From positions 1 through 61,643 of the IMG/VR virus record IMGVR_UViG_3300037486_000465: 61,643 nt of DNA, one strand, 5' to 3'. Shown here piece after piece: positions 2,477 to 50,461 of the stretch (positions within the stretch are counted from its first letter, which is position 1; every line of letters begins with the position of its first letter). The notes below the pieces were generated by a model that saw only the letters and a program-made list of their open reading frames with translations, was not told the DNA's origin and made no database searches. The stretch comes from a virus (lineage: Duplodnaviria > Caudoviricetes). The position numbers were made by a program, and so were the translations under genes.

Positions 2477-3109
2477 TTATTTTAAGTTATTTATAAATGC
2501 ATCATCTATTCCTAATCTTTTATAAAACGAAAAATTTTTTGTTTTGAGAAAATCTCGTATAAATGATTCGCCTTCTCCGTTTTCGTATATTATTACTTTT
2601 ATATGAAATTTATCATAATCAATACTTTTAAGTATTTTTAATTCAGAGCCTTCAGTATCAACAGATAAAAAATCTATATCATATATTTTATTTTCTTCAA
2701 GAATTTCATTTAATATTCGAGTATGCACTTCAATAACTTTTCTTTTTGCTCCAATTCTTTGACTTTCAGATAATATGTTTGACATGTGTTTAAATGTAAT
2801 GTCTTTTGCAATGCCGCTTAACATATCGGGATAACCATCAAATTCTACTAATGTAAATTTTTCTATTCCATTAGTTTCATAACATGCACAATTATATGTA
2901 ATGCAGGATCTATTTTCAATTAATTTTTTATATTCATATTCTATTGGCTCTATACATATTCCCGTCCATTCTAATTCTTTTTCTAGTACATATGTATTTG
3001 AAAGATCTATACCATCATGAGCTCCTATATCTATAAATACACCATTTCGTTTTCCTTTAAAATAATTTACTATAAATTGATCTTGTTTATGTTGGCTTTT
3101 ATATTCCAT
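2477..3109 (-). CDS. FkbM-family methyltransferase
   Basis: SQ..QD, FIDIGAHDG..SNT, W.G..IEP, SVDTEGSE. Confidence 0.9.
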   Translation of the reverse strand: MEYKSQHKQDQFIVNYFKGKRNGVFIDIGAHDGIDLSNTYVLEKELEWTGICIEPIEYEYKKLIENRSCITYNCACYETNGIEKFTLVEFDGYPDMLSGIAKDITFKHMSNILSESQRIGAKRKVIEVHTRILNEILEENKIYDIDFLSVDTEGSELKILKSIDYDKFHIKVIIYENGEGESFIRDFLKTKNFSFYKRLGIDDAFINNLK

Positions 3110-3111
3110 TT

Positions 3112-3762
3112 TTATTTTATATTTATTGGTTGTCCAATATATTCATTATTAATTCTTAAGTGAGGTATTTTTCTCGCTCCTTCGTTATATCTATCTTGGT
3201 CATCATGAATGCAAGCAGAATCTTTAATTAATGGATATATCATTCTTGCAAGAAATTCTTGATCTGTTGCATAAGTATTAATATATTTAATATTATTAAA
3301 TTGCAATATAAGATCATCATAATTAATACGAGAAATAAAATCATATGTTGCACCCCACATTCCCCCCATTATTTTTGTATTATGCATAGGATGATCTCGT
3401 ATAATGTGAAATTCTTTTTTACTTCTCTCCCAATCTATTATACAATTTTTTTCTCGCTGTGTTAGTCTTCCATCAGTATCTCTAACTATAAATCTTTCAA
3501 CGTCTTTATCTTTTAAAACTTCAAATCTCCAAAACATACCCGGGGCATCCATATGTTTAATAAAAGGGTTTTCTAATTTCTTAACTACTTCGCAGTTTTC
3601 TTCTTTTATTTTATTACATATATCTTCAGATACTAAGTCATGAATATAGAATCTACAAATCCATTCAGGATATATAAGTTTTTGTAACTTAATATTTTCC
3701 AGTGCTCCAATAATATACTTTTGATCATTTCCCCAAAGAGAAAATGATATGATTTTTTTCAT
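3112..3762 (-). CDS. Conserved glycan-cluster protein, putative glycosyltransferase
   Basis: IISFSLWG, MFWRF, RDTD (DxD), RDHP.H, GGMWG, DQEFL. Confidence 0.55.
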   Translation of the reverse strand: MKKIISFSLWGNDQKYIIGALENIKLQKLIYPEWICRFYIHDLVSEDICNKIKEENCEVVKKLENPFIKHMDAPGMFWRFEVLKDKDVERFIVRDTDGRLTQREKNCIIDWERSKKEFHIIRDHPMHNTKIMGGMWGATYDFISRINYDDLILQFNNIKYINTYATDQEFLARMIYPLIKDSACIHDDQDRYNEGARKIPHLRINNEYIGQPINIK

Positions 3763-34335: not shown

Positions 34336-35226
34336 TTAGTTATCACCTAAGAATTTTTTAACCTTATTTGCTTTTTCAGTTTCTTTCTTAGCTTTTTCAG
34401 CCTTTTCGGCTTCAATTTTTTCTTGTTCTTTTTTCTGCTTATATTGTGCTATTACTTCTTTCATTGATCCTTTAAACGTATCATTATAAAAAGAATTAAA
34501 ACCCTTTACAACATTATTAGATCCGCATCTAAAAATTTCTTCTCTTCCATCACCAGCTAAATCATAAACTACTAGATAAGTCTGTGGAGATGTAAGATCT
34601 GCAGTAGGCTGTACTGGTTCTTCTAATGGTGTTTCAGTGGGAGCTTCCATAGAATCTTCTGCTGGAGGAGTAGATAAATCTTGCGCCGGAGCGTTTTCGG
34701 CAGGTGTATCTGTAGGTTCTTTAGTAAGAAGATCTTCTTTTTCATCGCCTAAATTACCAAGATCTAAAGCAGGATCTTCAGTTTCTTTAGCTTCAGTAAC
34801 AGGAGTAGTAGGCAAAGCTGTTTGTTCAACTTTAGGAGTAATTTCCTTTCCTTCTATAATTTCTTCTTCTGGTTCTTCTGACGCGCCCGTTCCTCCTTCT
34901 ATACTACCATCTGATAGTGTTTGCGGCGGTAATTCCATAACACCCACAACATAATCACTATTAAATAATTTATATATGTTTCCACCCTGTGTAAAGCTTT
35001 GTTTAGTTTGTTGGTTTTCATCCCAAAATTCCTTAAATTTAAGAATTTCGCCGCCAGCAGCCTTTTTAAATTGATCAAAGTTCTTAGTAATCTTATCTAT
35101 AATAGCTAAGCCATCTTTTTCCTTTGATTGTAATGTCTCTTTATCCATTCCAGCCTTTTCTTCTTCAAATAAGCTAAAAAATTTGTAATCTTCAAATTCT
35201 TGCAGAGATTCACGTACGTGTTTCAT
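34336..35226 (-). CDS. Acidic hypothetical protein, probable virion/internal head protein
   Basis: N-terminal VRESLQEF; Pro/Glu/Thr-rich linker; late-type motif upstream. Confidence 0.7.
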   Translation of the reverse strand: MKHVRESLQEFEDYKFFSLFEEEKAGMDKETLQSKEKDGLAIIDKITKNFDQFKKAAGGEILKFKEFWDENQQTKQSFTQGGNIYKLFNSDYVVGVMELPPQTLSDGSIEGGTGASEEPEEEIIEGKEITPKVEQTALPTTPVTEAKETEDPALDLGNLGDEKEDLLTKEPTDTPAENAPAQDLSTPPAEDSMEAPTETPLEEPVQPTADLTSPQTYLVVYDLAGDGREEIFRCGSNNVVKGFNSFYNDTFKGSMKEVIAQYKQKKEQEKIEAEKAEKAKKETEKANKVKKFLGDN

Positions 35227-35233
35227 AATTCAC

Positions 35234-35255
35234 TATTTTATTTTATATATTCAAA
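35234..35255 (-). promoter_or_regulatory. Putative late promoter motif
   Basis: TTTGAATATATAAAATAAAATA, identical over 22 nt to 54260-54281. Confidence 0.7.
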
Positions 35256-35280
35256 CTTTTTCTATCAGAATATATATAAA
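35253..35280 (+). promoter_or_regulatory. Phage promoter AAACT-N17-TATAA
   Basis: AAACT-ttttctatcagaatata-TATAAA before the ATG at 35299; overlaps a GAATATATA motif. Confidence 0.6.
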
Positions 35281-35298
35281 AAAATAAACATCAATACT

Positions 35299-36072
35299 AT
35301 GAAATATAGCGAGTTTTTACAATTAGATCAATTATTAGAATCTAAAGGAACAACTTTAGTAAAGGAACTAAAGGAGCTAAATGAAGCTACTCCTCAATTA
35401 CCAACCGCACCACAAAAACTTGATACTGAAAGAGGAGGAATTTTTACAAATTGGGGCAGATTGAAAACAAAATTGAATAACATAGCTAAAAATACACAAA
35501 AGCAATTACTTGTAAAAGTTTTAAATAAATATTTGCCAAATATTCTTCAAACAGAAAAACAAATGGTAGAAAAAATGCAAAAACCTAATAATACTGTACA
35601 ATTACAAAAAGTAGCTAACGATAATTATGCTGCGATTAAAAGTAATCAAAATAAACAAATAAACACTATCATTACAGTAATGGATCAATTTATTGATAAT
35701 ATAACACAAGAAATGTATAAAAAAATAAATGCGAGTAATGTAACTAATGAAAATAAACTTAAGTTAAAAAATTATTGGCTATTATTAACTACACAAATTT
35801 CTATGAATGCATTATCTTATATAATTAACGAACGCGGAAAAATAATAGATTCTATTTTTGGAAATGATAAAAAGGCAAGCGAACCGGTAAAAAAGGCAGC
35901 CAATCAAGATCTTATTCAAGCAAGAGATAAACAGGGGAAATTTGTAAGTGCAAAAAAACAGGAATTTACAACTAGCCAAAAAAATCCAAGTGAGCCTAAA
36001 CCTACAGTACCTGCTCCTGCGCCAGCTACTACTCCAGCACCCGCTATTACTCCAGCACCGGCTACAAAATAA
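35299..36072 (+). CDS. Hypothetical helical protein with Pro/Ala/Thr tail
   Basis: True start at 35299 (MKYSEF); C-terminal PAPAPATTPAPAITPAPATK. Confidence 0.75.
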   Translation: MKYSEFLQLDQLLESKGTTLVKELKELNEATPQLPTAPQKLDTERGGIFTNWGRLKTKLNNIAKNTQKQLLVKVLNKYLPNILQTEKQMVEKMQKPNNTVQLQKVANDNYAAIKSNQNKQINTIITVMDQFIDNITQEMYKKINASNVTNENKLKLKNYWLLLTTQISMNALSYIINERGKIIDSIFGNDKKASEPVKKAANQDLIQARDKQGKFVSAKKQEFTTSQKNPSEPKPTVPAPAPATTPAPAITPAPATK

Positions 36073-36084
36073 TATAATTATAAT

Positions 36085-37044
36085 ATGTCAGAAAAAAAAT
36101 TAGTTTGTGAATCATTAGAAGAGTTTAATTTTCTTGTAGAGGCCAAAGAAGGAGAACATGGAATTGGTAGTGGCGTATGGAAAGCCGTTAAAACTGCTCC
36201 AGGTCGTATATTGAGAAAATCAAGAGCAAGAAACATTATACAAAAATATCAAAAGAAATTAACTCAAAGGATTAATGCCATTGTTCCTAAATATGAACCA
36301 AATATTGCAAAATTAGTTGAAAAAATCAAAAATAGAATAGCTCAAATTAATCCTACAGCATCAGAAGAAATTCAGAAAAATCAAAAAGAAGATATTCTTG
36401 ATGACATGAAAGATAATATGAAAAGCTTGCTAGATTCAATGAAAACTGCGATGGAAGAACAATTAAAAATTTACGCAGAAAGTTTGCATGATAGGTTAAC
36501 TAGAACAGGAACGATAACAGGTGTGGACTTCTTCCCCGAAGAAAAAACCGCTCTTTTATCAGAATGGAAAGTTGTAGAAGAAAATATAAATAAATTAATT
36601 CAAGAAAAACTTATTAATTTATTAGACAACGTTAATATTAAAGACTTTCAAGAAATGAAAGCTGAATTAGAAGAGTATATAAATAATGCAAAGGGTTGGT
36701 TTTCGCCTACATTATTAACAACAGGAACAGTAGATGATTTAGATCCTAAATCAGATGAATACAAATTATGGGATTATATTTTTAATAAAGCAGGATATAC
36801 TTTTAATCAGCCTTATTTAATAAATGATACTAGTAGATTTCCTATAAGAACTTTTTCTCGACATATTGAATTTAAAATAGATGCCAATAAAGCAAAAGTA
36901 GGATATTTATTCGTACAAAAAGATAGAAAACGAGGTTGGATACCAGTTTTAGATCACCCTGATATAATTCATTTAATTAAGCCCAAAGAAACTTTTGCAG
37001 AAGGTTTAGAGGTAGTAAAAGCTATAGATAGTGCATTAAAATAA
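36085..37044 (+). CDS. Hypothetical protein, probable internal head protein
   Basis: N-terminal KKLVCESLEEF..LVE; coiled-coil-like. Confidence 0.7.
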   Translation: MSEKKLVCESLEEFNFLVEAKEGEHGIGSGVWKAVKTAPGRILRKSRARNIIQKYQKKLTQRINAIVPKYEPNIAKLVEKIKNRIAQINPTASEEIQKNQKEDILDDMKDNMKSLLDSMKTAMEEQLKIYAESLHDRLTRTGTITGVDFFPEEKTALLSEWKVVEENINKLIQEKLINLLDNVNIKDFQEMKAELEEYINNAKGWFSPTLLTTGTVDDLDPKSDEYKLWDYIFNKAGYTFNQPYLINDTSRFPIRTFSRHIEFKIDANKAKVGYLFVQKDRKRGWIPVLDHPDIIHLIKPKETFAEGLEVVKAIDSALK

Positions 37045-37053
37045 TATTTAATT

Positions 37054-37920
37054 ATGTTAGGAAGAGAAGCATACGAAGAATTTAAAAAATTAGAAAAACA
37101 GGTAAATGAAGTAAGAGCAATCTATAATCATTTAAAATCTGATATAGCTTCTATGTCTGATGGCCAAATTAAATCCCAAGTAACAAAAATATTAAACAGA
37201 ATAACAAAAATAGATTTTGATTTAATAAATGATTATTTAGAAGCTTTAAAATCTTATCTTATATATGATGACTTGAAACTAAAGGCCGAGGAAATTCTAA
37301 AAGATATAGATGAAATTAAAGAATACGTTTATTCACTTAAAAAAGAAGAAATTAAACCAGAGCCAAAGCCTGAGCCCAAACCCGAAGAAGATACAACTGT
37401 TCCGCATGCTAATAAATTAGATATAATTAGAGATAAATATACATTTCTTCAAAAAGAAATAGATGCATCAGATACTGATGCAGTCATTAAAGATGCTAAA
37501 AGGCTTGATACATTATTATCAAATTTAAATTTTGAAGATCTTCCTGAAGGAGATTATGAAGAAATGTTTAAAATTAAAAATGAAGTTTCGAGAATTATAA
37601 AAAATCTCGTAGGTGTTGAAAAATCAGAAAAATATGGTCCTTATATTATGGCACCTTTAATTGAATTAATTGCCAATATTTATACTTTAGGAAATAAAGC
37701 CAAAGCAGAACAAAAGGCTGCTACACTTTTGAACTTCATAGAAGATCCAGAAAGAATAGAAATGTTTGAGCCCGCAATTAAAAGAATTATTGCAAAAAAA
37801 ATGACACCTAAAGAATTTAGAACTTTTTATGAATCTACAAAGGCAATGATACGCGGAGAAAAGAAATTTGAATCTTTTGGAAAATATAAGGAACGAAATG
37901 AATTATTTTATCTCATATAA
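37054..37920 (+). CDS. Hypothetical coiled-coil protein
   Basis: Long ORF with KPEPKPEPKPE linker. Confidence 0.7.
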   Translation: MLGREAYEEFKKLEKQVNEVRAIYNHLKSDIASMSDGQIKSQVTKILNRITKIDFDLINDYLEALKSYLIYDDLKLKAEEILKDIDEIKEYVYSLKKEEIKPEPKPEPKPEEDTTVPHANKLDIIRDKYTFLQKEIDASDTDAVIKDAKRLDTLLSNLNFEDLPEGDYEEMFKIKNEVSRIIKNLVGVEKSEKYGPYIMAPLIELIANIYTLGNKAKAEQKAATLLNFIEDPERIEMFEPAIKRIIAKKMTPKEFRTFYESTKAMIRGEKKFESFGKYKERNELFYLI

Positions 37921-38653
37921 TCAATATAAAAAACAAATAGTTTTAAACGAAACGTATGAAAGTTATCAAGAATTAAAGATTTTGGCAGAAGAAATTTCTG
38001 CAAAAATTAATATTTTCAATAGTTCTATAAATAAATTGTATCCATTATCAAAATTAGTACAAAATTCGCGTTATACAGTAATTAAAGATTTTATAACTAA
38101 TCAAGTCTGTATAATTATTACTGATCAACTTGATACTCCAGCCGCTTATGTATCAAATGATAGATACGATCTAGCTTTCGGAAACAATTTTAGGAGTAAA
38201 CATGAAAATATTTGTAAAACTGGAGTTATTTTAATACGTCCAACTTCTAAAAATTCTTCAGCTTTAATTCATGAATTAGAGCATGCGTGGGATGATTATC
38301 GTTCAAAGGGAAAACTTTTAAATACAAAATTAGGACAAAAATACAAAGAAAAAGCAGAAAAATATATATCTCAACAAACTGGAAAATCTGCAGCGTATGA
38401 TCCAGCTTTAACAACATTATATTATCGTACGCCCCACGAAATAAGTGCATATTTTGTTGAAGTATTAGAAGAAATCAATTTCTTTAGAGATGAATCAGAA
38501 ATGTATTTAAGAGATTTTAAAGATTTATACGAAGAATTCGTAGAAAAATTTCAAGGATACGAATATTTAACGCCTAAAGATAAAAAAATACTTGCTAGAA
38601 AATTTTCTCAGTATTATTATAAATTAAAGGAAAGAAATATTTACGAAGAATAA
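37898..38653 (+). CDS. Putative zincin metallopeptidase
   Basis: LIHELEHA (HExxH) plus downstream YY..P.E..AY third ligand; ATG at 37898. Confidence 0.65.
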   Translation: MNYFISYNQYKKQIVLNETYESYQELKILAEEISAKINIFNSSINKLYPLSKLVQNSRYTVIKDFITNQVCIIITDQLDTPAAYVSNDRYDLAFGNNFRSKHENICKTGVILIRPTSKNSSALIHELEHAWDDYRSKGKLLNTKLGQKYKEKAEKYISQQTGKSAAYDPALTTLYYRTPHEISAYFVEVLEEINFFRDESEMYLRDFKDLYEEFVEKFQGYEYLTPKDKKILARKFSQYYYKLKERNIYEE

Positions 38654-38671
38654 ATATAATAAAAATATTAT

Positions 38672-39373
38672 ATGAAACACAAAATTAAACCATTTGAAGA
38701 ATTCAAAAAGATAAATGAAGAATTTTATAATCCTTTTGAAGTAGATAATCCAATAGAAACAAAGCCTTCTCATATTGCAGATAAGGGTGGAGTATTGAAA
38801 ATGCGTAAAGAAATATTTAATGTTAATCGCGTTGAATACTCTAAAAAGAAAAATGGAAGTTATTGTGTTCTTGCAAAAACTCAATTTGCTAAAGGTGAAA
38901 TAGTTGAAATAGCGCCAGTTATATTTGTAGGGTTTGAGGCTAAAGCTGTTCCAAGATTAAAAGATTATATTTTTGAAATAGATAAAAACAAACAAACTTA
39001 TGGAGTTGTTTTAGGATATGGATCTTTATATGGGCATTCACCAACACCTAATATAACATTTGCTTATAATAAATCTAATCGTCAAATGTATTTTATGGCG
39101 GCTCAAACTATAAACGCTGGCGCAGAATTGACAATTGATTACGGAAAAGATTATTGGGCAGAACGTTCCGGATTCGGAACCATGGCACCCCAAGAACAAC
39201 CCGCAGTTCAGAGTGGAGAGTCAGTAGTTAAAGGAGAAACTAGCGAAAGCGCAGTACAGCCTAATTCTGAGGATATAACTAATGCAAGCGCAGCCAAACA
39301 ATTTGGTATGCATAATGATAAAGCAAACCCGGCAGTATCTGGAATTGCTATAAAAACTATTGGACAACAATAG
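38672..39373 (+). CDS. SET-domain protein-lysine methyltransferase
   Basis: A....KGE.VE..P, GYGSLYGHS..PN (NHS variant), GAELTIDYG..YW. Confidence 0.85.
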   Translation: MKHKIKPFEEFKKINEEFYNPFEVDNPIETKPSHIADKGGVLKMRKEIFNVNRVEYSKKKNGSYCVLAKTQFAKGEIVEIAPVIFVGFEAKAVPRLKDYIFEIDKNKQTYGVVLGYGSLYGHSPTPNITFAYNKSNRQMYFMAAQTINAGAELTIDYGKDYWAERSGFGTMAPQEQPAVQSGESVVKGETSESAVQPNSEDITNASAAKQFGMHNDKANPAVSGIAIKTIGQQ

Positions 39374-39374
39374 T

Positions 39375-39902
39375 ATGAAAGCCAAAAAAGTATTTGAAAA
39401 ATTTGTAGCAGATTCTGATCCTATTAAAGATATGGGTATAGGCATATTTTATAAACAATGGAGAATTGATCATAATCATAAACCAATTATTACTTATATT
39501 TTTTATTTAATAGACCCAATGAATAATAAAAAAAGATACATATTTTTTATCTATTACGCACATGAAGTAGCATTGGCAAATGAAAGAGATTCTATATATT
39601 TTAGGGGCGAACGATTAATAGGAGGATGGGAGTATGGAAGCGGAACAGGATTTGCATTAAGCAATATGCAAAATAAACCCGACAGATTTTTTGATTCTGC
39701 AGAAGATACAAGTTGGTTACATAGTAAAGTATTCGAAAAGGATGTTATTGATAATCTTAAAGATGAAAAAAGCGCAGAAAAAATGATAAATGATATTTCA
39801 AATGAATGGTTTGAAGAACCCATTTTTTTAGAAATGATGAAAAAATGGTTTAAAACTGGCGTAATGAGAATTGATCATATAGAAATGAAGATTCATAAAT
39901 GA
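39375..39902 (+). CDS. Hypothetical protein with EKF..DSDPI.DMGIG leader
   Basis: ATG at 39375; leader shared with the next gene. Confidence 0.7.
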   Translation: MKAKKVFEKFVADSDPIKDMGIGIFYKQWRIDHNHKPIITYIFYLIDPMNNKKRYIFFIYYAHEVALANERDSIYFRGERLIGGWEYGSGTGFALSNMQNKPDRFFDSAEDTSWLHSKVFEKDVIDNLKDEKSAEKMINDISNEWFEEPIFLEMMKKWFKTGVMRIDHIEMKIHK

Positions 39903-40270
39903 AGTTAGTTAGAGAACATATTAATGAAAAGTTTATTGAGGATTCAGATCCTATAAGAGATATGGGCATTGGAATATACGGAAAACCTAAAAATTTTAAA
40001 TCTACAGATGAAATAGTAGATTTTTTAATAGAATGTTTGCCAGCTATTCTTAAAACTAATAAAATTCCCAAAAATATAATTTATTTACCAGAACAAGGAA
40101 GCGCATTTAATTGGCAATATTATGAATATTTAGATAAGTATATTAAAAAATATTTAACAATTAACAATAAAGAAACTCGGTTAGAAGCATTTTTAATAAA
40201 TTTTTGGCACAGATTACTAAAGATGGGATATGGAGTATCAAACGAAGAAATGAAAAATTATAATCAATAA
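39899..40270 (+). CDS. Hypothetical protein with EKF..DSDPI.DMGIG leader
   Basis: MKLVREHINEKFIEDSDPIRDMGIG. Confidence 0.7.
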   Translation: MKLVREHINEKFIEDSDPIRDMGIGIYGKPKNFKSTDEIVDFLIECLPAILKTNKIPKNIIYLPEQGSAFNWQYYEYLDKYIKKYLTINNKETRLEAFLINFWHRLLKMGYGVSNEEMKNYNQ

Positions 40271-40278
40271 ATTAAATT

Positions 40279-40635
40279 ATGGAATTAGATAAAATTAAAA
40301 GCATTTCTTTTTCTTTAATGAAAAGAGAAACTGAAATAGATATGGAACAAGCTAAAGCAGAATATACTAAAAAGGCATCTGCAAAATTCATAGTCCCTGA
40401 AGGATATTTTCAAAATGAAGGAATGGTTGAAACAATGGTAATTGCCATGTATGATAATCTTAAAGACAATGTAGTAAATAAAGAAGATGTAGATTCATTG
40501 GGTTTATGGATAGGTTATGAAGATATAGTTACAGATAATGCTATATCATTAACCACACTAGATGCTATTGGTGAATATTCCGCAGAAAAAATAACGCCAG
40601 TTTTTGAATTCTTCAAAATGACTTTGCCAGAATAA
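40279..40635 (+). CDS. Hypothetical acidic protein
   Basis: In-operon ORF. Confidence 0.65.
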   Translation: MELDKIKSISFSLMKRETEIDMEQAKAEYTKKASAKFIVPEGYFQNEGMVETMVIAMYDNLKDNVVNKEDVDSLGLWIGYEDIVTDNAISLTTLDAIGEYSAEKITPVFEFFKMTLPE

Positions 40636-40672
40636 ATGGTTATACGGGCCCTAAAAGTAACCATAACCGGAT

Positions 40673-40742
40673 GGTTTTGTAGTTTAAACACAAAACTATA
40701 AGAGAGTTTCTTATGTTGTAGGGCGGGATCCTACCAAGACCA
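40673..40742 (+). ncRNA. tRNA-like cloverleaf RNA with non-canonical loops
   Basis: GGTTTTG/CAAGACC 7-bp acceptor stem, TA linker, GTTT/AAAC D stem, ATAAG/CTTAT and GTAGG/CCTAC 5-bp stems with 7-nt loops; lacks D-loop GG, U33 and TTC. Confidence 0.6.
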
Positions 40743-40839
40743 TCTTTTTTTCTAAAAAAATCATTAATATATACAACAATAATTTTAAAAACTAAACTAA
40801 AATAATGTATATAAACAAGTAAAATTTTTTACTTAAACA

Positions 40840-42009
40840 ATGGAAGAACTAGATTCGTCTAAAGACAGGCAGAATCAATCAGAGCAATTTGATTCTGCCG
40901 TAAACTCACACCTCGTAAGCTCATCGAAAACATTAGAATTTCGAAATAAATTTTATCCTCAAGTAACTTTATCACAATGGAACGACTGGAAATGGCAAAT
41001 ACGTAACAGTATAACTACGTATGAAGAATTGTCTCGCATTTTTGGATTATCTAATTATGAATTATCTGAAGATATAAATTTACCTCTAAGAATTACTCCT
41101 TATTATGCAAGTACAATAACTTCTATTCATCAAGGAATAGGAAAATGTGTAATTCCAACTAGTAATGAACTCATTGTTACTGAAAATGAATTAAATGATT
41201 CATTAAACGAAGAAGAACAAAGTCCAGTGCCTTGTATTGTTCATAGATACCCTGATCGTGTATTATTTCTAACTACAGACTTTTGTTCATCTTATTGTAG
41301 ATATTGTACAAGATCTCATATGGTAGGACATACCGAAATTACTAAAAAAATATGGGATAAAGGTATTCAATACATTAAAGATCATAAAGAAATTCGAGAT
41401 GTATTATTATCTGGCGGAGATCCATTAACTATGAGTGATGAAAATATTGAATATTTACTTAAAGAATTAAGATCAATAGAACATGTTGAATTTTTAAGAA
41501 TAGGAACTAAAATGCCTGTAGTATGTCCTCAACGAATTACGACTGAACTTGTTTCAAAATTAAACAAGTTTCACCCCTTGTTTCTAAGTATTCACTTTAG
41601 TCATCCCGATGAATTAACGCCTGAAGTTAAAGAAGCGTGTGAAAGACTTGCAAATGCAGGTATTCCATTAGGTTCTCAAACCGTATTACTTAAAAATGTT
41701 AATGATGATGTAGATACTATGAAAAAGCTTATGCACGGTTTACTTAAAATTCGTGTCAGACCTTATTATATATACCAGTGCGATCGCGTCGTGGGAACAT
41801 CACATTTTAGGACTCCTATAAGTAAAGGATTAGAAATAATAGAAGGATTGCGAGGATGGACAACTGGATATGCTGTGCCTCAGTTTATTATAGATACTCC
41901 CGGAGGAAAAATTCCGTTATTACCAAACTATTTTGTTGAGAAAGAAGGAAATTGTATAAAACTAAGAAATTATCAAAATAAAGAATTTACATACTATGAA
42001 GAACTTTAA
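40840..42009 (+). CDS. KamA-family radical SAM amino-acid 2,3-aminomutase
   Basis: QWNDWKWQ, HRYPDR, CSSYCRYCTR, SGGDPL, Q.VLL..VND, PYY.YQCD, D.PGGKIP (PLP Lys). Confidence 0.92.
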   Translation: MEELDSSKDRQNQSEQFDSAVNSHLVSSSKTLEFRNKFYPQVTLSQWNDWKWQIRNSITTYEELSRIFGLSNYELSEDINLPLRITPYYASTITSIHQGIGKCVIPTSNELIVTENELNDSLNEEEQSPVPCIVHRYPDRVLFLTTDFCSSYCRYCTRSHMVGHTEITKKIWDKGIQYIKDHKEIRDVLLSGGDPLTMSDENIEYLLKELRSIEHVEFLRIGTKMPVVCPQRITTELVSKLNKFHPLFLSIHFSHPDELTPEVKEACERLANAGIPLGSQTVLLKNVNDDVDTMKKLMHGLLKIRVRPYYIYQCDRVVGTSHFRTPISKGLEIIEGLRGWTTGYAVPQFIIDTPGGKIPLLPNYFVEKEGNCIKLRNYQNKEFTYYEEL

Positions 42010-43195: not shown

Positions 43196-44410
43196 ATGAG
43201 ATACATTACACATATCCCGTTGGCCGGCGGGTTTGGTTTAGGAAATATGAACATAACTGGAACTGCACCTTTAGCAATTACTTCTTATTCTGCATTTGAA
43301 TCTAATGATAATCTTTTTCGTCGATATTTAAGTAAAAAAGGGTTTGATATCCCATATTATCAAATAGATAAATTAGATTATCATCAAAGTAGATTTCTTT
43401 TAGAAAAATATACCGATATTGATTTTATAACTGCTGTTCCTCCTTGCAACGCGCTTTCGCAAGCTGCTTGTAGAGCTAAAGGTTCTCGAGGTACTGCTGC
43501 ACCAAATGAATGGATGTATAAATCAGCAGAAGTTATTTTACATCATATACGGCCAACAATATACGCCTTTGAAAACGCGCCAGGACTTTTTACATGTAGT
43601 GGAGATGTAGTTCGCGAAAAACTTATAGATATAGGCGAAAATAATGGATATTCAATAACTTTTTATAAAACTAATACCATAAAACACGGTATTCCTCAGT
43701 TTAGACCTCGTACATTTGGAATATTCTTAAAGGGCTTTGGCGCGCCTATTTTGAATTATTATAATAAACCAATGCCTCATATAATAGATTATTTAAAACA
43801 AATTCCTAAAGAAGCAAGTTATCAAGATAAATATATGAATCCTGATTCAAATATAAACGAATATGAAATAACTAAGTTCTTTAAAAAGAAATATGGAGAA
43901 GATTGGAGAAACGAAATCTATAAAACATATAAATTTCATTTAACGTCTTACGATTATTTGAAAAGACAACACTTATTATATGAATTTAAAGATTTTCTTG
44001 AAACACTACCAAATGCATCAATAATAGTTAAAAAGAATCTTGATCACGTTATTAAAAAAACTGATATAGGCAAAAATTTTAGATTAGGATATAGAGTTCT
44101 TGGATTAGATAAAGATCATGTTTATGCAGTTATATCAGAAATGATGAATAGAACTTTACATCCAATTGAAGATAGACTCATTAATATAAGAGAATATATG
44201 CACTTAATGGGATTACCACATGATTATGAACTTGAAAGTGCAAAAGAATATCCTAAAATAACTCAAAATGTACCCGTTAGTACATGCGAAGATATAACGA
44301 CAGAAATAATAGAAATAATAAATGGCAATAGAAAAATATCAAATAGACAAGTTTTAATGCAAGACAATACAAAAGAAACTGAAAATTCAAAAACTATAGC
44401 ATTATTTTAA
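43196..44410 (+). CDS. C5-cytosine DNA methyltransferase-like protein (atypical SAM motifs)
   Basis: PPCN (motif IV), FENAPGL (VI), G.PQ.RPRTF (VIII), HP...R..N.RE; motif I reads IPLAGG and motif X reads ITQNVP. Confidence 0.8.
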   Translation: MRYITHIPLAGGFGLGNMNITGTAPLAITSYSAFESNDNLFRRYLSKKGFDIPYYQIDKLDYHQSRFLLEKYTDIDFITAVPPCNALSQAACRAKGSRGTAAPNEWMYKSAEVILHHIRPTIYAFENAPGLFTCSGDVVREKLIDIGENNGYSITFYKTNTIKHGIPQFRPRTFGIFLKGFGAPILNYYNKPMPHIIDYLKQIPKEASYQDKYMNPDSNINEYEITKFFKKKYGEDWRNEIYKTYKFHLTSYDYLKRQHLLYEFKDFLETLPNASIIVKKNLDHVIKKTDIGKNFRLGYRVLGLDKDHVYAVISEMMNRTLHPIEDRLINIREYMHLMGLPHDYELESAKEYPKITQNVPVSTCEDITTEIIEIINGNRKISNRQVLMQDNTKETENSKTIALF

Positions 44411-44421
44411 ATTATAAGAAT

Positions 44422-44838
44422 ATGGAAGAAACTTATCACAATACTAAAAATTCAGATAGAAATTATGGAAAAAAACGAGAACCGTTAGCATTAGAAAAAT
44501 TCTGTAAAGAAAAATCTCTTTCTTATATACAATCTTCTCATGATGATGATACAAAAAATAAATTTGATGCATACATTAATGACTACCCAACTAGCGTAAA
44601 ATGTTCAGAGAGATGGCCCAATGGAAGTTTTCCTAAAAAGGATTTGATTCCTGAAAATAAATCTGTATATGTTTTATTTGAAAATAACGTATATGAAAAC
44701 TATTTAGTTTGGTTTGAATCATTAAAAGAATTCATCAATGAAGGAAAGGCGGTTGATCGGGGAGCTTATTATGTAATAGATCAAAAAGATTTATACGATT
44801 TACAGGAATTAACAAAAAAATTACATCCTATAATATAA
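44422..44838 (+). CDS. Hypothetical protein, possibly PD-(D/E)xK-like
   Basis: E...D....D......SVK pattern; weak. Confidence 0.55.
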   Translation: MEETYHNTKNSDRNYGKKREPLALEKFCKEKSLSYIQSSHDDDTKNKFDAYINDYPTSVKCSERWPNGSFPKKDLIPENKSVYVLFENNVYENYLVWFESLKEFINEGKAVDRGAYYVIDQKDLYDLQELTKKLHPII

Positions 44839-44850
44839 AAATACTTTCTA

Positions 44851-45444
44851 ATGAATAAATTAATAGTTATCTGCGGAGGCGACCGCCTCGGAAAAGGAAC
44901 ATTAATTAAAGGTTTATGCGAAACTTTTGATTATAAAAATATAACTATTCGTCATTGCGATAAACCGCCCAAAGATCTATTAAATGATCAAATTTTAGAT
45001 TATCAATTAAAAGCGTTTGAACAAGAATTTGAATTAATACATTATGTTCAAACAATGAATAGAAAATTTATGTATCATGATAATATAATTATTTATGATA
45101 GATTTCATCTAGGAGAATTTGTATATGGGCAATTATTTAGAAATTATGATGCAAATTTATTGAAAACTAAAATATTAGCGTTAGAAGAAAAAAATTTAAG
45201 AAACAATATATGGTTTGAGCCGTATCTTATAACTTTAACTGCTGACTCTGAATTCTTTTTAAATAAAGAAGATGGAAATTCATTTTCAAAAAATTTAGAA
45301 GAGAAAACAAAAGAGCTTCAATTATTTAAAGAAACTCATGATTTTAGTGTAATTAAAAATAAATTGTTAGTTAAAGTTGATGAAAATGGTTCTTTTAGAT
45401 CAAAAGAAGAAATATTAAATGAAGTAATAAATTTTATAAAATGA
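44851..45444 (+). CDS. dNMP/thymidylate kinase-like protein
   Basis: GGDRLGKGT P-loop; DRFHLGE.VYG. Confidence 0.85.
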   Translation: MNKLIVICGGDRLGKGTLIKGLCETFDYKNITIRHCDKPPKDLLNDQILDYQLKAFEQEFELIHYVQTMNRKFMYHDNIIIYDRFHLGEFVYGQLFRNYDANLLKTKILALEEKNLRNNIWFEPYLITLTADSEFFLNKEDGNSFSKNLEEKTKELQLFKETHDFSVIKNKLLVKVDENGSFRSKEEILNEVINFIK

Positions 45445-45523
45445 ACAAATTTATAGTAAAAGATAATGTGCCTACCTGCGCAAAGAAAGGGCTACCGCCA
45501 AAACCTATAAAAAACAATAAAAT

Positions 45524-46600
45524 ATGGTTGCTGAAAATAATAAAATAGCACTAATTTCAGGCATAACAGGGCAAGATGGTTCGTATTTAGCTGAATTACT
45601 TCTTTCAAAGGGATATAAAGTTCATGGAATAATTCGTAGAGCATCTACATTTAATACTGCTAGATTAGAACACATTTATGAAGATCCTCATATTCCAGAT
45701 CATCACTTAACGTTACATTATGGAGATGTATCGGATATATTATCGGTAGAACAAATAATGATGAACGTTAAGCCCGATGAAATATATCATTTAGGCGCAC
45801 AATCTCATGTTAAAGTTTCTTTTGAATTACCTGCTTATACAGCGCAAGTAGATGCATTTGGCACGTTGAATATGCTTGAAGCTATGAGAAAACACTGTCC
45901 CAATGCTAGATTTTATAATGCAGCAACATCAGAATTATTTGGAAAAGCTGAACAGATTCCACAAAATGAAAATACACCAATACATCCGCGAAGTCCTTAT
46001 GGAGTAGCAAAAGTATATGCTTATTGGATAACTAAAAATTATCGAGAAGCATATAATATGTTTGCTGTAAATGGAATTCTTTTTAATCATGAAAGCGAAA
46101 GACGAGGAGGCACATTTGTAACTGCAAAAATTATAAACGGCTTAATAGATTATCTTAAAAATGGTACACCGTTTTATTTGGGAAATATTTACGCAAAACG
46201 AGATTGGGGATATGCTCCAGAATATGTTGAATGTATGTGGAGAATGCTACAACAAGATAGTCCAGAAGATTTTGTAATTGGAACCGGCGAAACACATACA
46301 ATAAAAGAATTTGTAGATGAATGCTTAGAATATTTGCCTAAGCTAGAAATTTCTATTAATTATTCATATAAAAGATTTAGGTGGAGAGAAGACGAAAAAA
46401 ATAGATGGATTCTTTGGGATGTAAAAGATTGGAAATTAGTAATTGGTATTGATGAAAAATATTATAGACCGGCAGAAGTAGACGTATTACAAGCAGATTC
46501 TTCAAAAGCAAAAGAAAAATTAGGTTGGGCCCCAAAAACAACATTCAAAGATCTTGTTAAAATTATGATTGAATATAGAATTAAACACGGTAAAATTTAA
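45524..46600 (+). CDS. gmd: GDP-mannose 4,6-dehydratase
   Basis: [51 protein letters not shown]. Confidence 0.96.
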
Positions 46601-46605
46601 CAACA

Positions 46606-47055
46606 ATGGACAAAAAACAAGTTATTTACTTAATTGGGAGTTTGAGAAATGAAAAAATTCCGTTTATTGCTAATAATATTAGAAAATTAGGATTCGAAGT
46701 TTTTGATGATTGGTTCTCTCCCGGTCCTGAAGCTGATGAATTTTGGAGAACATATGAAAAAAACAGGGGAAGCTCATATAAACAGGCGTTAAATAATTGG
46801 GCCGGAAAACATATATATGAATTTGATAAACATCATATTGATAGAGCAGATATTGGTGTTTTATATATGCCGGCGGGTAAAAGTGGACATCTAGAATTAG
46901 GATATATGATAGGACAAGGCAAAAAATGCTTTGTATTATTTGATGAAGAGCCCGAAAGATGGGACGTGATGTACCAGTTTGCAGAAGCGGTGTGCTTTTC
47001 ATTTGACGAATTAAAAGAAGAACTAATAAAATTTACTAGTGATGCAAAAAAATAG
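46606..47055 (+). CDS. Nucleoside 2-deoxyribosyltransferase-fold protein (possible dNMP glycosidase)
   Basis: IYL.GS, D...I..AD, P.GKSGHLELGY..G.GK. Confidence 0.7.
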   Translation: MDKKQVIYLIGSLRNEKIPFIANNIRKLGFEVFDDWFSPGPEADEFWRTYEKNRGSSYKQALNNWAGKHIYEFDKHHIDRADIGVLYMPAGKSGHLELGYMIGQGKKCFVLFDEEPERWDVMYQFAEAVCFSFDELKEELIKFTSDAKK

Positions 47056-48019
47056 TAAAATATACGTAACAGGTTGTGATGGATTAGTAGGTTCAGCGGT
47101 AGTTCGCGAACTGCAAAAACAAGGATACACAGATATTCTTCGTTCATCAAAACATAAAGCTTATCATAATGGAACAGTTTATGAAGACGATTATGATTTA
47201 CGTTACGAAGAAAATGTAACTAAATTGTTTATTCAATTTGGTCCAGAATATGTTATAAATTGCGCTGGAAAAGTAGGAGGAATTAATGCAAATAATACTC
47301 AAAGTGCAGAATTTATTCGAGATAATATTATGATACAAACAAATATCATTAATATGTGTTATACGTATAGTGTTAAAAAACTATTGTTTCTTGGAAGCTC
47401 CTGTATTTATCCTAAATTATGTCCACAACCAATTAAAGAAGAATATTTATTAACATCATCATTAGAAGAAAGTAATATTGGGTACGCCATTGCAAAAATA
47501 TCTGGTCTTATAATGTGTCGTATGTATAATAAACAATATGGAAGTAATTTCATCTCGGCAATGCCTACAAATCTTTACGGTCCTAATGATAATTTTAATT
47601 TAAAGAATTCTCATGTTTTGCCGGCGCTAATACGAAAATTTCATGAAGCAAAAATTCGTGGTGATGAAAGTATTGAATTATGGGGAACTGGAACCGCAAA
47701 AAGAGAATTTTTATTTGTTGATGATTTATCCGAAGCACTAGTATTTTTAATGAATAATTATAACGATTGCAAAGAACACATTAATATTGGAATGGGTGAA
47801 GATATAATTATTAAAGATTTAGCCAATTTAATTAAAGAAATAGTTGATTATGATGGTAAAATTTTCTGGAATGTAGATTATCCAGACGGAACTCCTCAAA
47901 AATTATTAGATGTATCTAAAATTAATAATCTTGGTTGGAAGGCAAAAATTCCATTAGAAGATGGATTAAGAAAAACATACAAGTGGTTCGTTGAAAATTA
48001 TGAAAATATAAGAAAATGA
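47042..48019 (+). CDS. fcl: GDP-L-fucose synthase
   Basis: G..GLVGS, AGKVGGI.AN, LGSSCIYP, YAIAK, PTNLYGP.DNF, SHV.PAL, WGTG...REF. Confidence 0.95.
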   Translation: MQKNSKIYVTGCDGLVGSAVVRELQKQGYTDILRSSKHKAYHNGTVYEDDYDLRYEENVTKLFIQFGPEYVINCAGKVGGINANNTQSAEFIRDNIMIQTNIINMCYTYSVKKLLFLGSSCIYPKLCPQPIKEEYLLTSSLEESNIGYAIAKISGLIMCRMYNKQYGSNFISAMPTNLYGPNDNFNLKNSHVLPALIRKFHEAKIRGDESIELWGTGTAKREFLFVDDLSEALVFLMNNYNDCKEHINIGMGEDIIIKDLANLIKEIVDYDGKIFWNVDYPDGTPQKLLDVSKINNLGWKAKIPLEDGLRKTYKWFVENYENIRK

Positions 48020-48216
48020 AAACAGCAAAAGATTTGGCATATAAAGCATATTGTGACTCTATTAAAGAAATAGGTACAATAACAGATGAAGGAAAAATTA
48101 AAGAACGATTTGAAAATTGGTGGAAGGAATGGTATCATAGAGAAGATCATAAAGATAGTTTTCATCATGTGCATTCAGTCTTTATAGATCTTAAATCTTA
48201 TATACAAGCAGAATAA
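48016..48216 (+). CDS. Small hypothetical protein
   Basis: ATGA-coupled ORF. Confidence 0.65.
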   Translation: MKTAKDLAYKAYCDSIKEIGTITDEGKIKERFENWWKEWYHREDHKDSFHHVHSVFIDLKSYIQAE

Positions 48217-48227
48217 AAATTAAAAAA

Positions 48228-48491
48228 ATGAAAATTCTAAACAATTGGAAATTTAAAAGACATTTTAGTAATAATTTTTGGTATCGATACGGAATAATGT
48301 TTCCGTGGGAACGTAGAAAATATTTGCAAATAGGAATATTTGGGTTTATATATATGTTTCAGTGGGGTAGTTATGAAAATATCTATACTACAATATTATG
48401 TCCTGCTTGTGGCACGGTTGAAAATAAAAGAATTAAACTTTCTTGCGCATGTTGCAAAGGAGAAGGATATATTAAAAAATATAAAAAATGA
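48228..48491 (+). CDS. Hypothetical protein with CxxCG...CxxCxGxG zinc motif
   Basis: CPACG, CACCKGEG. Confidence 0.6.
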   Translation: MKILNNWKFKRHFSNNFWYRYGIMFPWERRKYLQIGIFGFIYMFQWGSYENIYTTILCPACGTVENKRIKLSCACCKGEGYIKKYKK

Positions 48492-48991
48492 GCTTAACCA
48501 CAAACAAAAATGACCCGAGATTAAAAGAAGGTCAGAAAAACGAAACAGGCCAACACGAAATATATTTAGTGCTTTCGGAAGAAGAAAGAGCAAAGGGATT
48601 TCTTCGTCCAGTGAGAGATTCTTATGTGCATGTTGGCAGAAAACAACGTGGATTGGAAATTCATGAAATACTTAGTGAAGAAGACAAAAAAGAAATGAAA
48701 GAAAAATATCCCGAAGATAAAAGGGACTATGTGGCGATATTAACTGTTATGAAAAAAGAAGATGGTAGTTTTCTTGGTGGATCGTATGTTACGCAGGAAG
48801 AATTGGACTCCTGGAAATCTGGCACGCTAATAGATGGTTGTGGAACTGTAACGATAATGGGAAGAGAGCTAGCTGAAACATACGCATGTTTTCCAAACTT
48901 TTATAGCGCAACATATTGCTGCGGTTGCGGAAAACATTTACCTGTTGAAGAATTTGTATGGGAAGGAACAAATGAAATAGTAGGATCATAA
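48488..48991 (+). CDS. Conserved phage hypothetical protein
   Basis: YLVLSEEERAKGF.RPVR..YVH ... CG..T.M...AETYA..P.FY.ATYC..C..H.PV.EF.W. Confidence 0.75.
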   Translation: MSLTTNKNDPRLKEGQKNETGQHEIYLVLSEEERAKGFLRPVRDSYVHVGRKQRGLEIHEILSEEDKKEMKEKYPEDKRDYVAILTVMKKEDGSFLGGSYVTQEELDSWKSGTLIDGCGTVTIMGRELAETYACFPNFYSATYCCGCGKHLPVEEFVWEGTNEIVGS

Positions 48992-49012
48992 AAATTATAA
49001 AGGTATATAAAA

Positions 49013-49171
49013 ATGAAAAAAATTACACTCATCGTTGAGGATGAAAACGGAAAACAAGTAACTGCTTATTTCGATTCTGAAAAAATAAAAGTTATGAAAG
49101 ATACATACGGTACAAATGTACTTGAACAAATGTATAATGTGTTGATAGAAGAATTAAAACAAATTAAATGA
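49013..49171 (+). CDS. Small hypothetical protein (52 aa, not in ORF track)
   Basis: MKKITLIVEDENGKQVTAYFDSEKIKVMKDTYGTNVLEQMYNVLIEELKQIK; ATGA overlap with the next gene. Confidence 0.7.
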   Translation: MKKITLIVEDENGKQVTAYFDSEKIKVMKDTYGTNVLEQMYNVLIEELKQIK

Positions 49172-49506
49172 AAAAATATTTCAATACGGAAGAAAAAGCA
49201 ATTAAGCATCTGGAATATAGAAAACAGTATGCCTATTCTCGTATTGAAAAAAGTGGAGATAAAATTTTAGGAGACGCATCATTCATATATAAAAATAAAA
49301 ATAATAAATGGGTAGTTTTCGTACAGATATTAACAGATAAAATGATGCATGATATTGAAGAAGTACAATCTATGTTTGATTCTATTCATCCATTAATTCC
49401 ATTTACATCAGACGAACAGATACTTAAAAGTGAACAACGAATTAAAAAATTAGGCAAGAAATATAAAACTCTTGACATTGAAGATTATACAATAAATATA
49501 TGGTAA
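49168..49506 (+). CDS. Hypothetical protein
   Basis: Coupled ORF. Confidence 0.65.
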   Translation: MKKYFNTEEKAIKHLEYRKQYAYSRIEKSGDKILGDASFIYKNKNNKWVVFVQILTDKMMHDIEEVQSMFDSIHPLIPFTSDEQILKSEQRIKKLGKKYKTLDIEDYTINIW

Positions 49507-49796
49507 AAGAAGAAAAAATATTAACGCAAACAACTAAATATCGCAAATATTGTGATGACTGCGGAAAAGAAATTACAAGAGGATTGGCTTGTAGTGTCGC
49601 TTTATGCGAATATTGCAAAAAAGATTTATGTGAAAAATGTATAGGCTACGAAGAAGAAACTTGGGGAGATTTTAGAACAGTTTATTGTAAAACCTGTTGG
49701 GAATTAGGTAATGAATATAGGCCTAAAATTGAAGAATTACATAATGAAATTGATAAATTATATAAAGAATGGCAAGATAAATGTAAAAATAAATGA
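49500..49796 (+). CDS. Zinc-finger hypothetical protein
   Basis: CDDC, CEYC, CEKC, CKTC. Confidence 0.7.
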   Translation: MVKEEKILTQTTKYRKYCDDCGKEITRGLACSVALCEYCKKDLCEKCIGYEEETWGDFRTVYCKTCWELGNEYRPKIEELHNEIDKLYKEWQDKCKNK

Positions 49797-50461
49797 AAGT
49801 AAAAGACATTAGACAACAATTTGTACAAAAGTACATAGATAAAGATTTTGAAGTAGATAAATATGGGGGCAAAACTATAGATTTAAATTGCGTTCAATTT
49901 GAAGCTGATGAAAATTATATTTTTGGAGAACCGAATGATGATTACATTAGACGAGAATTGACATGGTATTTATCTCAATCTTTGAATGTTAATGACATTG
50001 AAAACACTCCTAAAATTTGGAAGAAAGTAGCAGATCCAGATGGATTTATAAATTCAAATTATGGTTGGTGTATCTTTAGTAAAGAAAACGGAAACCAATA
50101 TGATAACTGCTTAAATGAACTTAAAAATAATAGAAGTTCAAGAAGAGGAACAATGATTTATAATCGTCCTGAAATGTGGATAGATTATAACAAGAATGGA
50201 CGTAGTGACTTCATGTGTACCTACGCAGTACAATTTTTAATAAGACATAATATCCTATGGTCATATGTTTTGATGCGCTCGAATGACGCCTGGGCTGGAT
50301 ATCGCAATGATTACGCTTGGCACAAATATGTGCTTAATAAACTAGCGAATGATTTAGAAATAGAAAAAACTATGATGATATGGAACTCTGGTAGTTTACA
50401 TTTATATGATAGGCAATTCTATTTATTAGATCAATATATTGTTGCAAATAAAACTATTTAG
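49793..50461 (+). CDS. dCMP hydroxymethyltransferase (T4 gp42-like)
   Basis: DF.VDK.G.KT, REL.WY.S.SL.V.DI..TPKIW, INSNYGW, SRRG.MIY.RP, DFMCT, MRSND...G.RNDYAW (Asp specifies dCMP), GSLH.Y. Confidence 0.92.
   Translation: MKVKDIRQQFVQKYIDKDFEVDKYGGKTIDLNCVQFEADENYIFGEPNDDYIRRELTWYLSQSLNVNDIENTPKIWKKVADPDGFINSNYGWCIFSKENGNQYDNCLNELKNNRSSRRGTMIYNRPEMWIDYNKNGRSDFMCTYAVQFLIRHNILWSYVLMRSNDAWAGYRNDYAWHKYVLNKLANDLEIEKTMMIWNSGSLHLYDRQFYLLDQYIVANKTI

Follow-up and report, generated by a model that had tools for sequence, protein, structure and literature searches.

A predicted family of tRNA-derived, non-decoding RNA elements in Lak-related megaphages

Results

A cloverleaf with non-canonical loops occupies an intergenic gap

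The stretch of DNA analysed here, referred to as the window, is a whole IMG/VR virus record of 61,643 nucleotides (nt) (IMGVR_UViG_3300037486_000465; 61.6 kb), which is estimated to be 15% complete and has a G+C content of about 28%. Its gp23-type capsid protein is 55% identical to the counterparts in Prevotella Lak megaphages, and we regard the window as a fragment of a Lak-related megaphage. On the plus strand, genes run gaplessly or with overlaps from 35200 to 40635, and the first intergenic gap is occupied by the element that is the subject of this study, a tRNA-shaped sequence at 40673-40742.

In an initial annotation, this sequence was described as a 70-nt RNA with tRNA spacing and four intact stems, in which the loops AAACACA, AGAGUUU and GCGGGAU replace the invariant bases, no CCA is encoded in register, and a 3-bp GAT/ATC extension of the stem is followed by a T tract. 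Reading the sequence directly, we found each part of this description to be exact: the plus strand of 40673-40742 holds a cloverleaf with stems of 7, 4, 5 and 5 base pairs (bp) and non-canonical loops. The minimum-energy structure given by RNAfold is the cloverleaf, both for the 70 nt alone and for a 141-nt context. The strands of the helix that closes the structure correspond to an inverted repeat (I4) of 10 nt that is 90% complementary. The parts of the element, together with the open reading frame (ORF) that precedes it, are as follows.

40279-40635, plus strand: ORF of 118 amino acids (aa), directly upstream of the element
40670-40679, plus strand: 5' strand of the closing helix (acceptor strand plus GAU extension), with GAUG at its base
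40670-40672 (GAU) with 40742-40744 (AUC), plus strand: stem extension, 3 bp beyond the acceptor-like helix
40673-40679 with 40735-40741, plus strand: acceptor-like helix, 7 bp, one G.U
40680-40681, plus strand: UA connector, read directly
40682-40696, plus strand: D-like arm, 4 bp, GUUU / AAACACA / AAAC
40697, plus strand: single base U between the D-like and anticodon-like arms
40698-40714, plus strand: anticodon-like arm, 5 bp, AUAAG / AGAGUUU / CUUAU
40715-40717, plus strand: variable region, GUU, 3 nt
40718-40734, plus strand: T-like arm, 5 bp, GUAGG / GCGGGAU / CCUAC
40735-40744, plus strand: 3' strand of the closing helix, with CAUC at its end
40742, plus strand: A at the discriminator position; the next bases are UCU and CCA is not encoded
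40745-40751, plus strand: T7 tract directly 3' of the closing helix, putative terminator tail

Taken alone, the window sequence is weak evidence for a functional RNA, and the case against chance depends on its homologues. The fold energy is ordinary (z -1.71 for the element alone, a stability reached by 13 of 200 shuffles, and z -1.07 within the longer context). A strict geometry scanner (stems of 7, 4, 5 and 5 bp with G.U allowed, a D loop of 6-11 nt and a variable region of 3-5 nt) returned exactly one cloverleaf in the whole window, on the plus strand only, and 4 of 400 dinucleotide shuffles of the whole window yielded a cloverleaf on either strand. At this rate of about 0.01 chance cloverleaves per window, a scan across many windows is expected to meet chance cases. 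The tRNA searches proposed in the initial annotation are silent on the window copy: ARAGORN in standard mode lists 0 tRNAs in the window and with lowered thresholds proposes other, poor folds, while Rfam gives no match in the window at the gathering score and no tRNA match at E<=10 in 40500-40900. An alternative register proposed by the mitochondrial mode of ARAGORN (with U33, A37 and the anticodon AAG) was rejected, since the pairing that it requires is not kept in the relatives described below.

Homologous elements follow homologues of the 118-aa ORF in other viral contigs

Relatives of the element were sought by several routes. A search by synteny through the downstream gene, which is lysine-2,3-aminomutase (LAM)-like, led to four loci (55-58% identity) that share neither the upstream gene nor the element. 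The exact 17-mer of the T arm has 0 matches in viral contigs, blastn of 40279-40850 against 50,697 phage records gave short chance matches only, all outside the element, and D-arm patterns in viral and metagenome contigs gave unrelated matches only. A single-protein scan with the 118-aa ORF returned nothing, and a scan of genome contigs with the ORF alignment returned no relative. Scanning viral contigs with an alignment of ORF homologues gave ten loci (L021-L030), and in 10/10 of these a homologous element lies 8-35 nt past the stop codon of the ORF.

Two covariance models were used to extend and evaluate this set: R1, built from the window element alone, and R2, the family model. R1 scores the elements of L021-L030 at 21-50 bits (L022 reaching 30 bits once speed filters are off). 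Applied to whole contigs, R2 finds one strong copy in each of the ten (71-100 bits), together with a second copy in the L025 contig (61 bits). Pattern scans filtered by R2 added a further locus, L131, in which the element sits after an ORF homologue and before a LAM-like gene. Overall, the element is present in 11 other viral contigs, 6-35 nt after the ORF homologue, and contributes 8 further distinct sequences. An ORF homologue therefore precedes the element in 12/12 contigs (the window, L021-L030 and L131), a linkage that is partly by construction as 10 of the 12 contigs were found via the ORF. R2 finds no element in three Lak genomes and two other related contigs, where the matches that score highest are true tRNAs; the 118-aa ORF is likewise missing from the three Lak genomes.

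Logan contigs from three DNA runs include one near-identical and one divergent variant; no RNA run is listed for the stretch, which speaks neither for nor against expression. The near-identical variant, in run X2, has a lone change within 40686-40751, T>A at 40716 in the variable region (contig depth 2.5). The divergent variant keeps the D arm and differs in its acceptor and anticodon-like strands over the 30 nt that are visible. The idea that this variant (run X2) is a plain hairpin lacking two arms was set aside, because L021 has the same 5' strand within a full anticodon-like stem. Further model matches were also discarded: L014 and L015 are weak and lie inside a 209-aa ORF, L087 is a weak match at the end of an unrelated coding region, and L020, L038, L040, L046-48 and L060 reach only 14-19 bits.

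Two side observations arose from these scans. The first 24 bases of the element (the 5' acceptor strand and the D arm) occur exactly at 2407-2430 of L012, an unrelated metagenome contig of 59.5% G+C, where the 24-mer forms a plain hairpin before a terminator, and near copies are found in L011 and L013; the match may be due to chance or to a small hairpin that is mobile. At 4182-4253 of L110, an unrelated 154-kb viral contig, a tRNA look-alike missed by ARAGORN lies about 100 nt before a tRNA-Leu, and has an acceptor stem that ends in ACCA, a D arm without GG, a T-like arm and a 6-bp 'anticodon' arm whose loop is just 4 nt long.

The shape of the element is under selection

Compensatory change was measured across the nine distinct sequences. 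Given no more than a plain MAFFT alignment, RNAalifold returned all four helices: the closing helix with 11-12 bp, the D stem with 4 bp, the anticodon-like stem with 6-7 bp and the T-like stem with 5-6 bp. Compensatory change is seen in 22 of 29 pairs. Covariation was then counted on a conservative 26-pair structure. Here, 92.7% of the cells in this structure are paired, compared with 78.8 +/- 1.4 in shuffled alignments, 19 of the 26 pairs change on both sides (8.3 when shuffled), and 0 of 500 shuffles reach any of five measures; when partners are slid by 1-3 columns, pairing falls to 33-54%.

Changes on both sides are spread over three of the helices: 9 of 11 pairs in the closing helix (helix 1, in which 96% of cells are paired), 5 of 6 in the anticodon-like helix (helix 3) and 5 of 5 in the T-like helix (helix 4). 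The D stem shows no covariation, with too little variation to tell; the D-like arm and the UA connector before it are the most sequence-conserved part of the element. Most of the unpaired cells in the anticodon-like and T-like helices come from a one-column MAFFT shift in three rows of the L025/L131 type. G.U pairs account for 22 of the paired cells. Read from the opposite strand, these would become A.C mismatches, which places the RNA on the plus strand, like the flanking genes. Folded alone, 7 of 8 members form the closing helix and the inner arms. Furthermore, these phages share only 44-56% identity in the flanking protein, a distance at which a neutral spacer should no longer align.

These results support selection on the shape of the element, and not random decay. 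This is what the initial annotation had proposed, with the proviso that ordinary decay from a canonical tRNA, free of covariation, would speak against it. The comparison of homologues shows instead that all four helices are kept, with compensatory changes across the nine sequences, while the loops that characterise a functional tRNA are absent or variable in every member.

Family members retain a tRNA-like core and lack the features of a working tRNA

The relationship of the family to tRNAs can be seen in several comparisons. At scores of 20-36 bits, R1 and R2 retrieve true tRNA-Lys, -Gln and -Arg genes from Lak phages and from contig G006, and a clear gap separates the scores of the family (61-100 bits) from those of true tRNAs (37 bits at most). 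Conversely, the Rfam tRNA model scores the L026 member at 33.7 bits against a threshold of 29; the other five of the six related loci scanned do not reach E<=10. Rfam families other than tRNA have no match to the window copy or to these six loci. In our own mapping to tRNA numbering, the columns corresponding to U8, A9, G10, A14, A15, A21, A23 and A24 are invariant in 9/9 sequences. In tRNAs, these positions build the core. The D arm of the element is only 2-3 changes away from a D arm that is common in phage tRNAs. Together, these sequence comparisons indicate that the family descends from a tRNA.

In contrast to this core, the D-loop GG, the T-loop UUC, the combination of U33 and a purine at 37, and CCA are missing throughout the family. 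The D loops of the relatives contain one G at most, and the T loop is not conserved, resembling a tRNA at best as UUAAAGU or UUGAAGU (L026-L030). The anticodon-like loop, which in the window (AGAGUUU) has neither U33 nor a purine at 37, ranges from 7 to 9 nt in the family with no common triplet, and the variable region is 2-4 nt in all members. The window copy is the most eroded in its loops. At the 3' end, position 73 and the next 2-4 bases are paired in all members, with the helix continuing 3-5 bp past the 'discriminator'. ARAGORN reports 0 tRNAs in L021-L030. On these comparisons, the family is predicted to have lost every feature required for decoding or charging.

Separately, the ARAGORN calls for L054 (Lak-B5, MK250024.1 near 196.5 kb) include, at 1510-1584 and beside a tRNA-Asn, a tRNA whose anticodon has four bases (tttt) in an 8-nt loop.

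The closing helix and U-rich tract have the form of an intrinsic terminator

In the family the closing helix is 10-12 bp long, 3-5 bp beyond the 7 bp of the tRNA-like acceptor. Its base, GAUG/CAUC, is conserved (AAUG/CAUU in L025a, the first of the two L025 copies), and in all members a U-rich tract directly follows. The element combines a stable helix with a U-rich tract within 0-2 nt. As is usual for intrinsic terminators, it is encoded on the coding strand where a block of co-oriented genes ends, past the last stop codon and ahead of the probable promoter of the next gene; the short-loop simple hairpin of such terminators is replaced by a helix that encloses 55 nt in three arms. The stem extension and the T tract were both noted in the initial annotation, which did not take the simplest step from them: in every member, the closing helix and U tract have the form of an intrinsic terminator.

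Plain hairpins followed by T tracts are found as terminators at other gene-block ends in the window (42433-65, 43108-35 and 54229-58). When R2 was run over the whole window with filters off, the element scored 81 bits, and the next-best sites (1075-1105, 54229-59, 42433-68 and 34304-36) are plain hairpins with a T tract, which the model matches by deleting the inner arms. An antiterminator, in which the 5' closing strand would pair with the D arm (I5) or with the anticodon-like arm (L026-L030), was considered and rejected as the partner differs between members.

The two copies in the L025 contig lie at 2880-2966 and 3609-3695, with a minus-strand ORF (2945-3589) between them that encodes a GIY-YIG (SegE-like) and NUMOD3 homing endonuclease, present in 1 of the 12 contigs. 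The second copy (L025b), which is of the L131 type, has lost the 5' closing strand and keeps the three arms and the T tract, and it has no same-strand gene before it. This arrangement looks like a homing event into or beside a conserved RNA gene.

Neighbouring genes and genomic setting

The 118-aa ORF has no Pfam or PHROG family and has 12 homologues at 44-56% identity. Its AlphaFold 2 (AF2) model has a predicted local distance difference test (pLDDT) score of 90.7, and Foldseek against the PDB returned nothing at E<=0.001. The best match of the model in a VIA-wide search has Z 5.5, and Atlas gave scores of 0.76 and a template-modelling (TM) score of 0.55, with no assignment; these values include a weak likeness to nucleic-acid-binding little-finger domains (Z 5.5; TM 0.55) that is below a meaningful level. 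Other features flank the element.

40636-40664, plus strand: upstream hairpin, 8-bp stem and 13-nt loop with CGGGCCCUA, one base past the stop codon of the 118-aa ORF
40752-40839, plus strand: spacer, with an A tract and an AT-rich block shared (by eye) with L021, L029, L030 and L131
40840-42009, plus strand: LAM-like radical SAM gene (Pfam LAM_C, Radical_SAM)

A similar upstream hairpin is present in L021, L026, L027, L029 and L030, giving six family sequences with the window, and is absent in L022-24, L025 and L131. It has a stem of 7-8 bp, altered between members and still able to pair, and a loop of 13-16 nt in which CGGGCCYUA is conserved (CGGGUCUUA in L027), with the palindrome GGGCCC in most members. 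The shared block of the spacer reads …AAACUAAAAU…UAUAUAA…, followed by a small hairpin before the start codon of the next gene, and 40752-40839 is probably the promoter and leader of that gene.

A LAM-like gene follows the element in the window, in L022 and L029 (by Pfam) and in L131 (by similarity to the window protein). L021 and L030 have an ORF of similar size in this position (375 and 389 aa, respectively), known by size alone. In L026 the following gene is instead a DUF5661 gene and in L025 a homing endonuclease.

Further observations concern neighbouring ORFs. The two that precede the 118-aa ORF, at 39360-39902 and 39899-40270, share an N-terminal motif, DSDPI[KR]DMGIG, which is also seen in a 94-aa ORF of L131 (SDPIKDMRIG); they appear to be part of a small paralogous family. 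In L030 (2501-2844) the homologue of the 118-aa ORF matches residues 1-97 only and ends early at a TGA, and the stop that it has in common with L029 sits 17 nt further on in another frame, a possible frameshift or assembly error.

The window also carries a dense cluster of sugar- and DNA-modification genes at 1108-35226 (minus strand) and 43196-50461. It includes several radical SAM and SPASM enzymes, a DegT aminotransferase, epimerases, dehydratases and glycosyltransferases, together with DNA alpha-glucosyltransferase-like, C5 cytosine methylase, thymidylate-synthase-like and thymidylate-kinase-like proteins. This gene content suggests synthesis of hypermodified DNA and/or a glycan in the megaphage.

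Discussion

We interpret the element as belonging to a so far undescribed RNA family that derives from a tRNA, does not decode and occurs in a clade of Lak-related megaphages. As to what it does, the reading that we favour, and hold with about even confidence, is that it acts as a branched intrinsic terminator for the operon, leaving behind either a 3' end in the shape of a tRNA or a small RNA. As its 3' strand is transcribed, the closing helix would zip up beside the U tract and the transcript would end, the three inner arms holding the strands of the closing helix together. The operon transcript would then be left with a compact 3' end shaped like a tRNA core, which may resist 3' exonucleases and/or be cut by RNase P or RNase Z, the cut product being a small RNA of about 75-90 nt. 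Since the inner arms are under selection, the tRNA-like body would be expected to do something that is beyond the reach of a plain hairpin.

Several points weigh against termination as the role of the element. Known intrinsic terminators carry a loop of 3-8 nt, and to our knowledge a 55-nt, three-arm insert is not an established terminator form. A consensus terminator scan of the window does not list the site, and the U tracts are interrupted in some members (L026 and L029). A terminator alone would fail to explain the sequence conservation of the D arm or the kept lengths of the tRNA connectors, and L025b fits a free-standing RNA at least as well as it fits a cis element. The underlying comparison, moreover, comprises nine distinct sequences of which three are close (L026, L029 and L030), and its covariation counts are of cells and not of independent events.

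The conservation that exceeds the needs of a terminator, in core geometry as well as in D-arm sequence, supports a reading that we consider a real but minor possibility, in which the element is a trans-acting tRNA mimic, released from the 3' end of the operon or transcribed alone, that binds a protein recognising the shape of a tRNA. Its partner might be a tRNA-processing or -modifying enzyme, a defence nuclease or the 118-aa protein, with the terminator serving only to make the 3' end of the RNA. The stand-alone position of L025b and the linkage to the ORF in every contig fit such a mimic, and the little-finger likeness of the 118-aa model offers a lead only; however, that fold match is below a meaningful level and the linkage is in part a product of the search. 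In addition, neither the elbow (D loop and T loop) nor the anticodon-like loop is conserved, so a partner would have to read the core or the helix only. For the same reason, namely that the anticodon-like loop is conserved in neither length nor sequence, a decoy for anticodon nucleases is unlikely, while roles as a tRNA mimic or a processing signal, which the initial annotation had listed beside it, are possible. RNase P and RNase Z measure the acceptor-plus-T stack, which covariation shows to be kept, and a tRNA-shaped body at the end of a transcript unit would suit processing punctuation alone, in which one or both of these enzymes set the 3' end of the upstream mRNA and the RNA has no further role. 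This we consider unlikely: in every member the leader and trailer pair fully for another 3-5 bp past position 1/73, CCA is missing, the bases of the elbow against which the enzymes stack are altered, and a U tract would be superfluous.

An odd but chargeable tRNA, or an aminoacyl carrier feeding, for example, the aminomutase-like or DNA-modification neighbours, is very improbable. One member (L026) does pass the Rfam tRNA threshold, and the next gene is LAM-like in four contigs (the window, L022, L029 and L131) and of similar size in L021 and L030; the LAM neighbour is nevertheless missing in L026 and L025, CCA is not encoded and the 3' end is not free, loops of 7-9 nt lack U33 or a purine at 37, ARAGORN finds 0 tRNAs in the window and L021-L030, and none of the 37 window ORFs scanned resembles a synthetase. 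Least probable of all is the absence of any RNA function, with the element a chance cloverleaf, a neutrally decaying tRNA pseudogene or a DNA target of a homing endonuclease. A single such sequence, of ordinary fold energy, is within chance at the scale of a scan, and a GIY-YIG gene does sit between the two L025 copies. Against this, three of the four helices show compensatory changes and the G.U pairs are strand-specific, conservation of the element extends over phages that share about 50% identity in the flanking protein, and the endonuclease is confined to one contig; the covariation results largely refute this explanation. The first three of these alternatives overlap with the terminator reading. 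A tentative and somewhat doubtful variant is that the tRNA-shaped body is itself the product, a stable RNA of about 75-90 nt that cleavage or termination would free from the 3' end of the operon and that would form, with the 118-aa protein, a small ribonucleoprotein imitating the tRNA core and occupying or misdirecting either a tRNA-handling enzyme of the host or a defence that senses tRNAs.

Huge phages are rich in tRNAs, of which annotation pipelines recognise the canonical ones only. The family appears to be a tRNA descendant that has left decoding and is invisible to ARAGORN (the window copy also to Rfam), yet is selected for its shape. If the terminator reading is true, intrinsic terminators can take the form of a branched structure shaped like a tRNA core, and tRNA genes are open to recruitment as 3'-end modules. 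If the trans-acting reading is true, a phage makes a tRNA mimic with a dedicated protein partner, and, if the ribonucleoprotein reading is true, this would be a phage counterpart of Y-RNA- and mascRNA-type mimics, built on a terminator. Under either a cis or a trans reading, the family provides a compact RNA of about 85 nt, with natural compensatory variants, in which to ask what use the tRNA shape has outside translation, and its covariance model can be used for annotating other megaphage genomes.

Among known systems, the MALAT1 mascRNA is a tRNA-like processing signal at a transcript end. The t-elements of plant mitochondria are described as tRNA-like processing signals (Forner et al. 2007, PMC1920247). 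Both resemble the phage family in being non-decoding tRNA shapes that end a longer transcript and are thought to set transcript ends, and differ from it in being organellar or nuclear and in acting via RNase P and RNase Z without a U tract. The phage family has, in contrast, a paired leader and trailer and a terminator-like tail, and its cleavage is only predicted.

In bacteria, YrlA keeps canonical D and T loops and is accompanied by a Ro60 (TROVE) gene; no TROVE domain was found among the 37 window ORFs scanned with Pfam. YrlA is described as a bacterial Y-RNA-like tRNA mimic (Chen et al. 2014, PMC4201824) and the 'tRNA-Other' of Bacillus cereus as a pseudo-tRNA (PMC3399842), and on these accounts both are, like the phage family, tRNA-derived or tRNA-like RNAs outside decoding. 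In PMC7824862, the term 'tRNA-like' occurs once, for partners of Ro/TROVE. Candidates that are tRNA-like or contain terminators are mentioned in a catalogue (PMC10690425) that lists 8495 candidate structured RNAs drawn from IMG/VR; the tRNA-like examples named there overlap ARAGORN calls, which the phage family does not, and the family may be listed, unnamed, among the 8495. The literature searched yielded no account of a tRNA-like element in Lak-type phages and none of a terminator with the shape of a tRNA.

Compared with intrinsic terminators, the element shares a helix with a G-C pair at its base, a following U-rich tract and a position at the end of a gene block; unlike in those, the 'loop' of the family is a conserved 55-nt body of three arms, the inner arms covary, and termination is here a prediction. 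Compared with canonical tRNAs (RF00005), it shares the four-helix cloverleaf, connectors of 2 nt and 0-1 nt and the invariant bases at core positions, and differs in the family's lack of GG and UUC, in a variable region of 2-4 nt and in a closing helix that measures 10-12 bp and leads into a U tract. What appears to be new here is the fusion of a tRNA-like element to a helix of terminator form.

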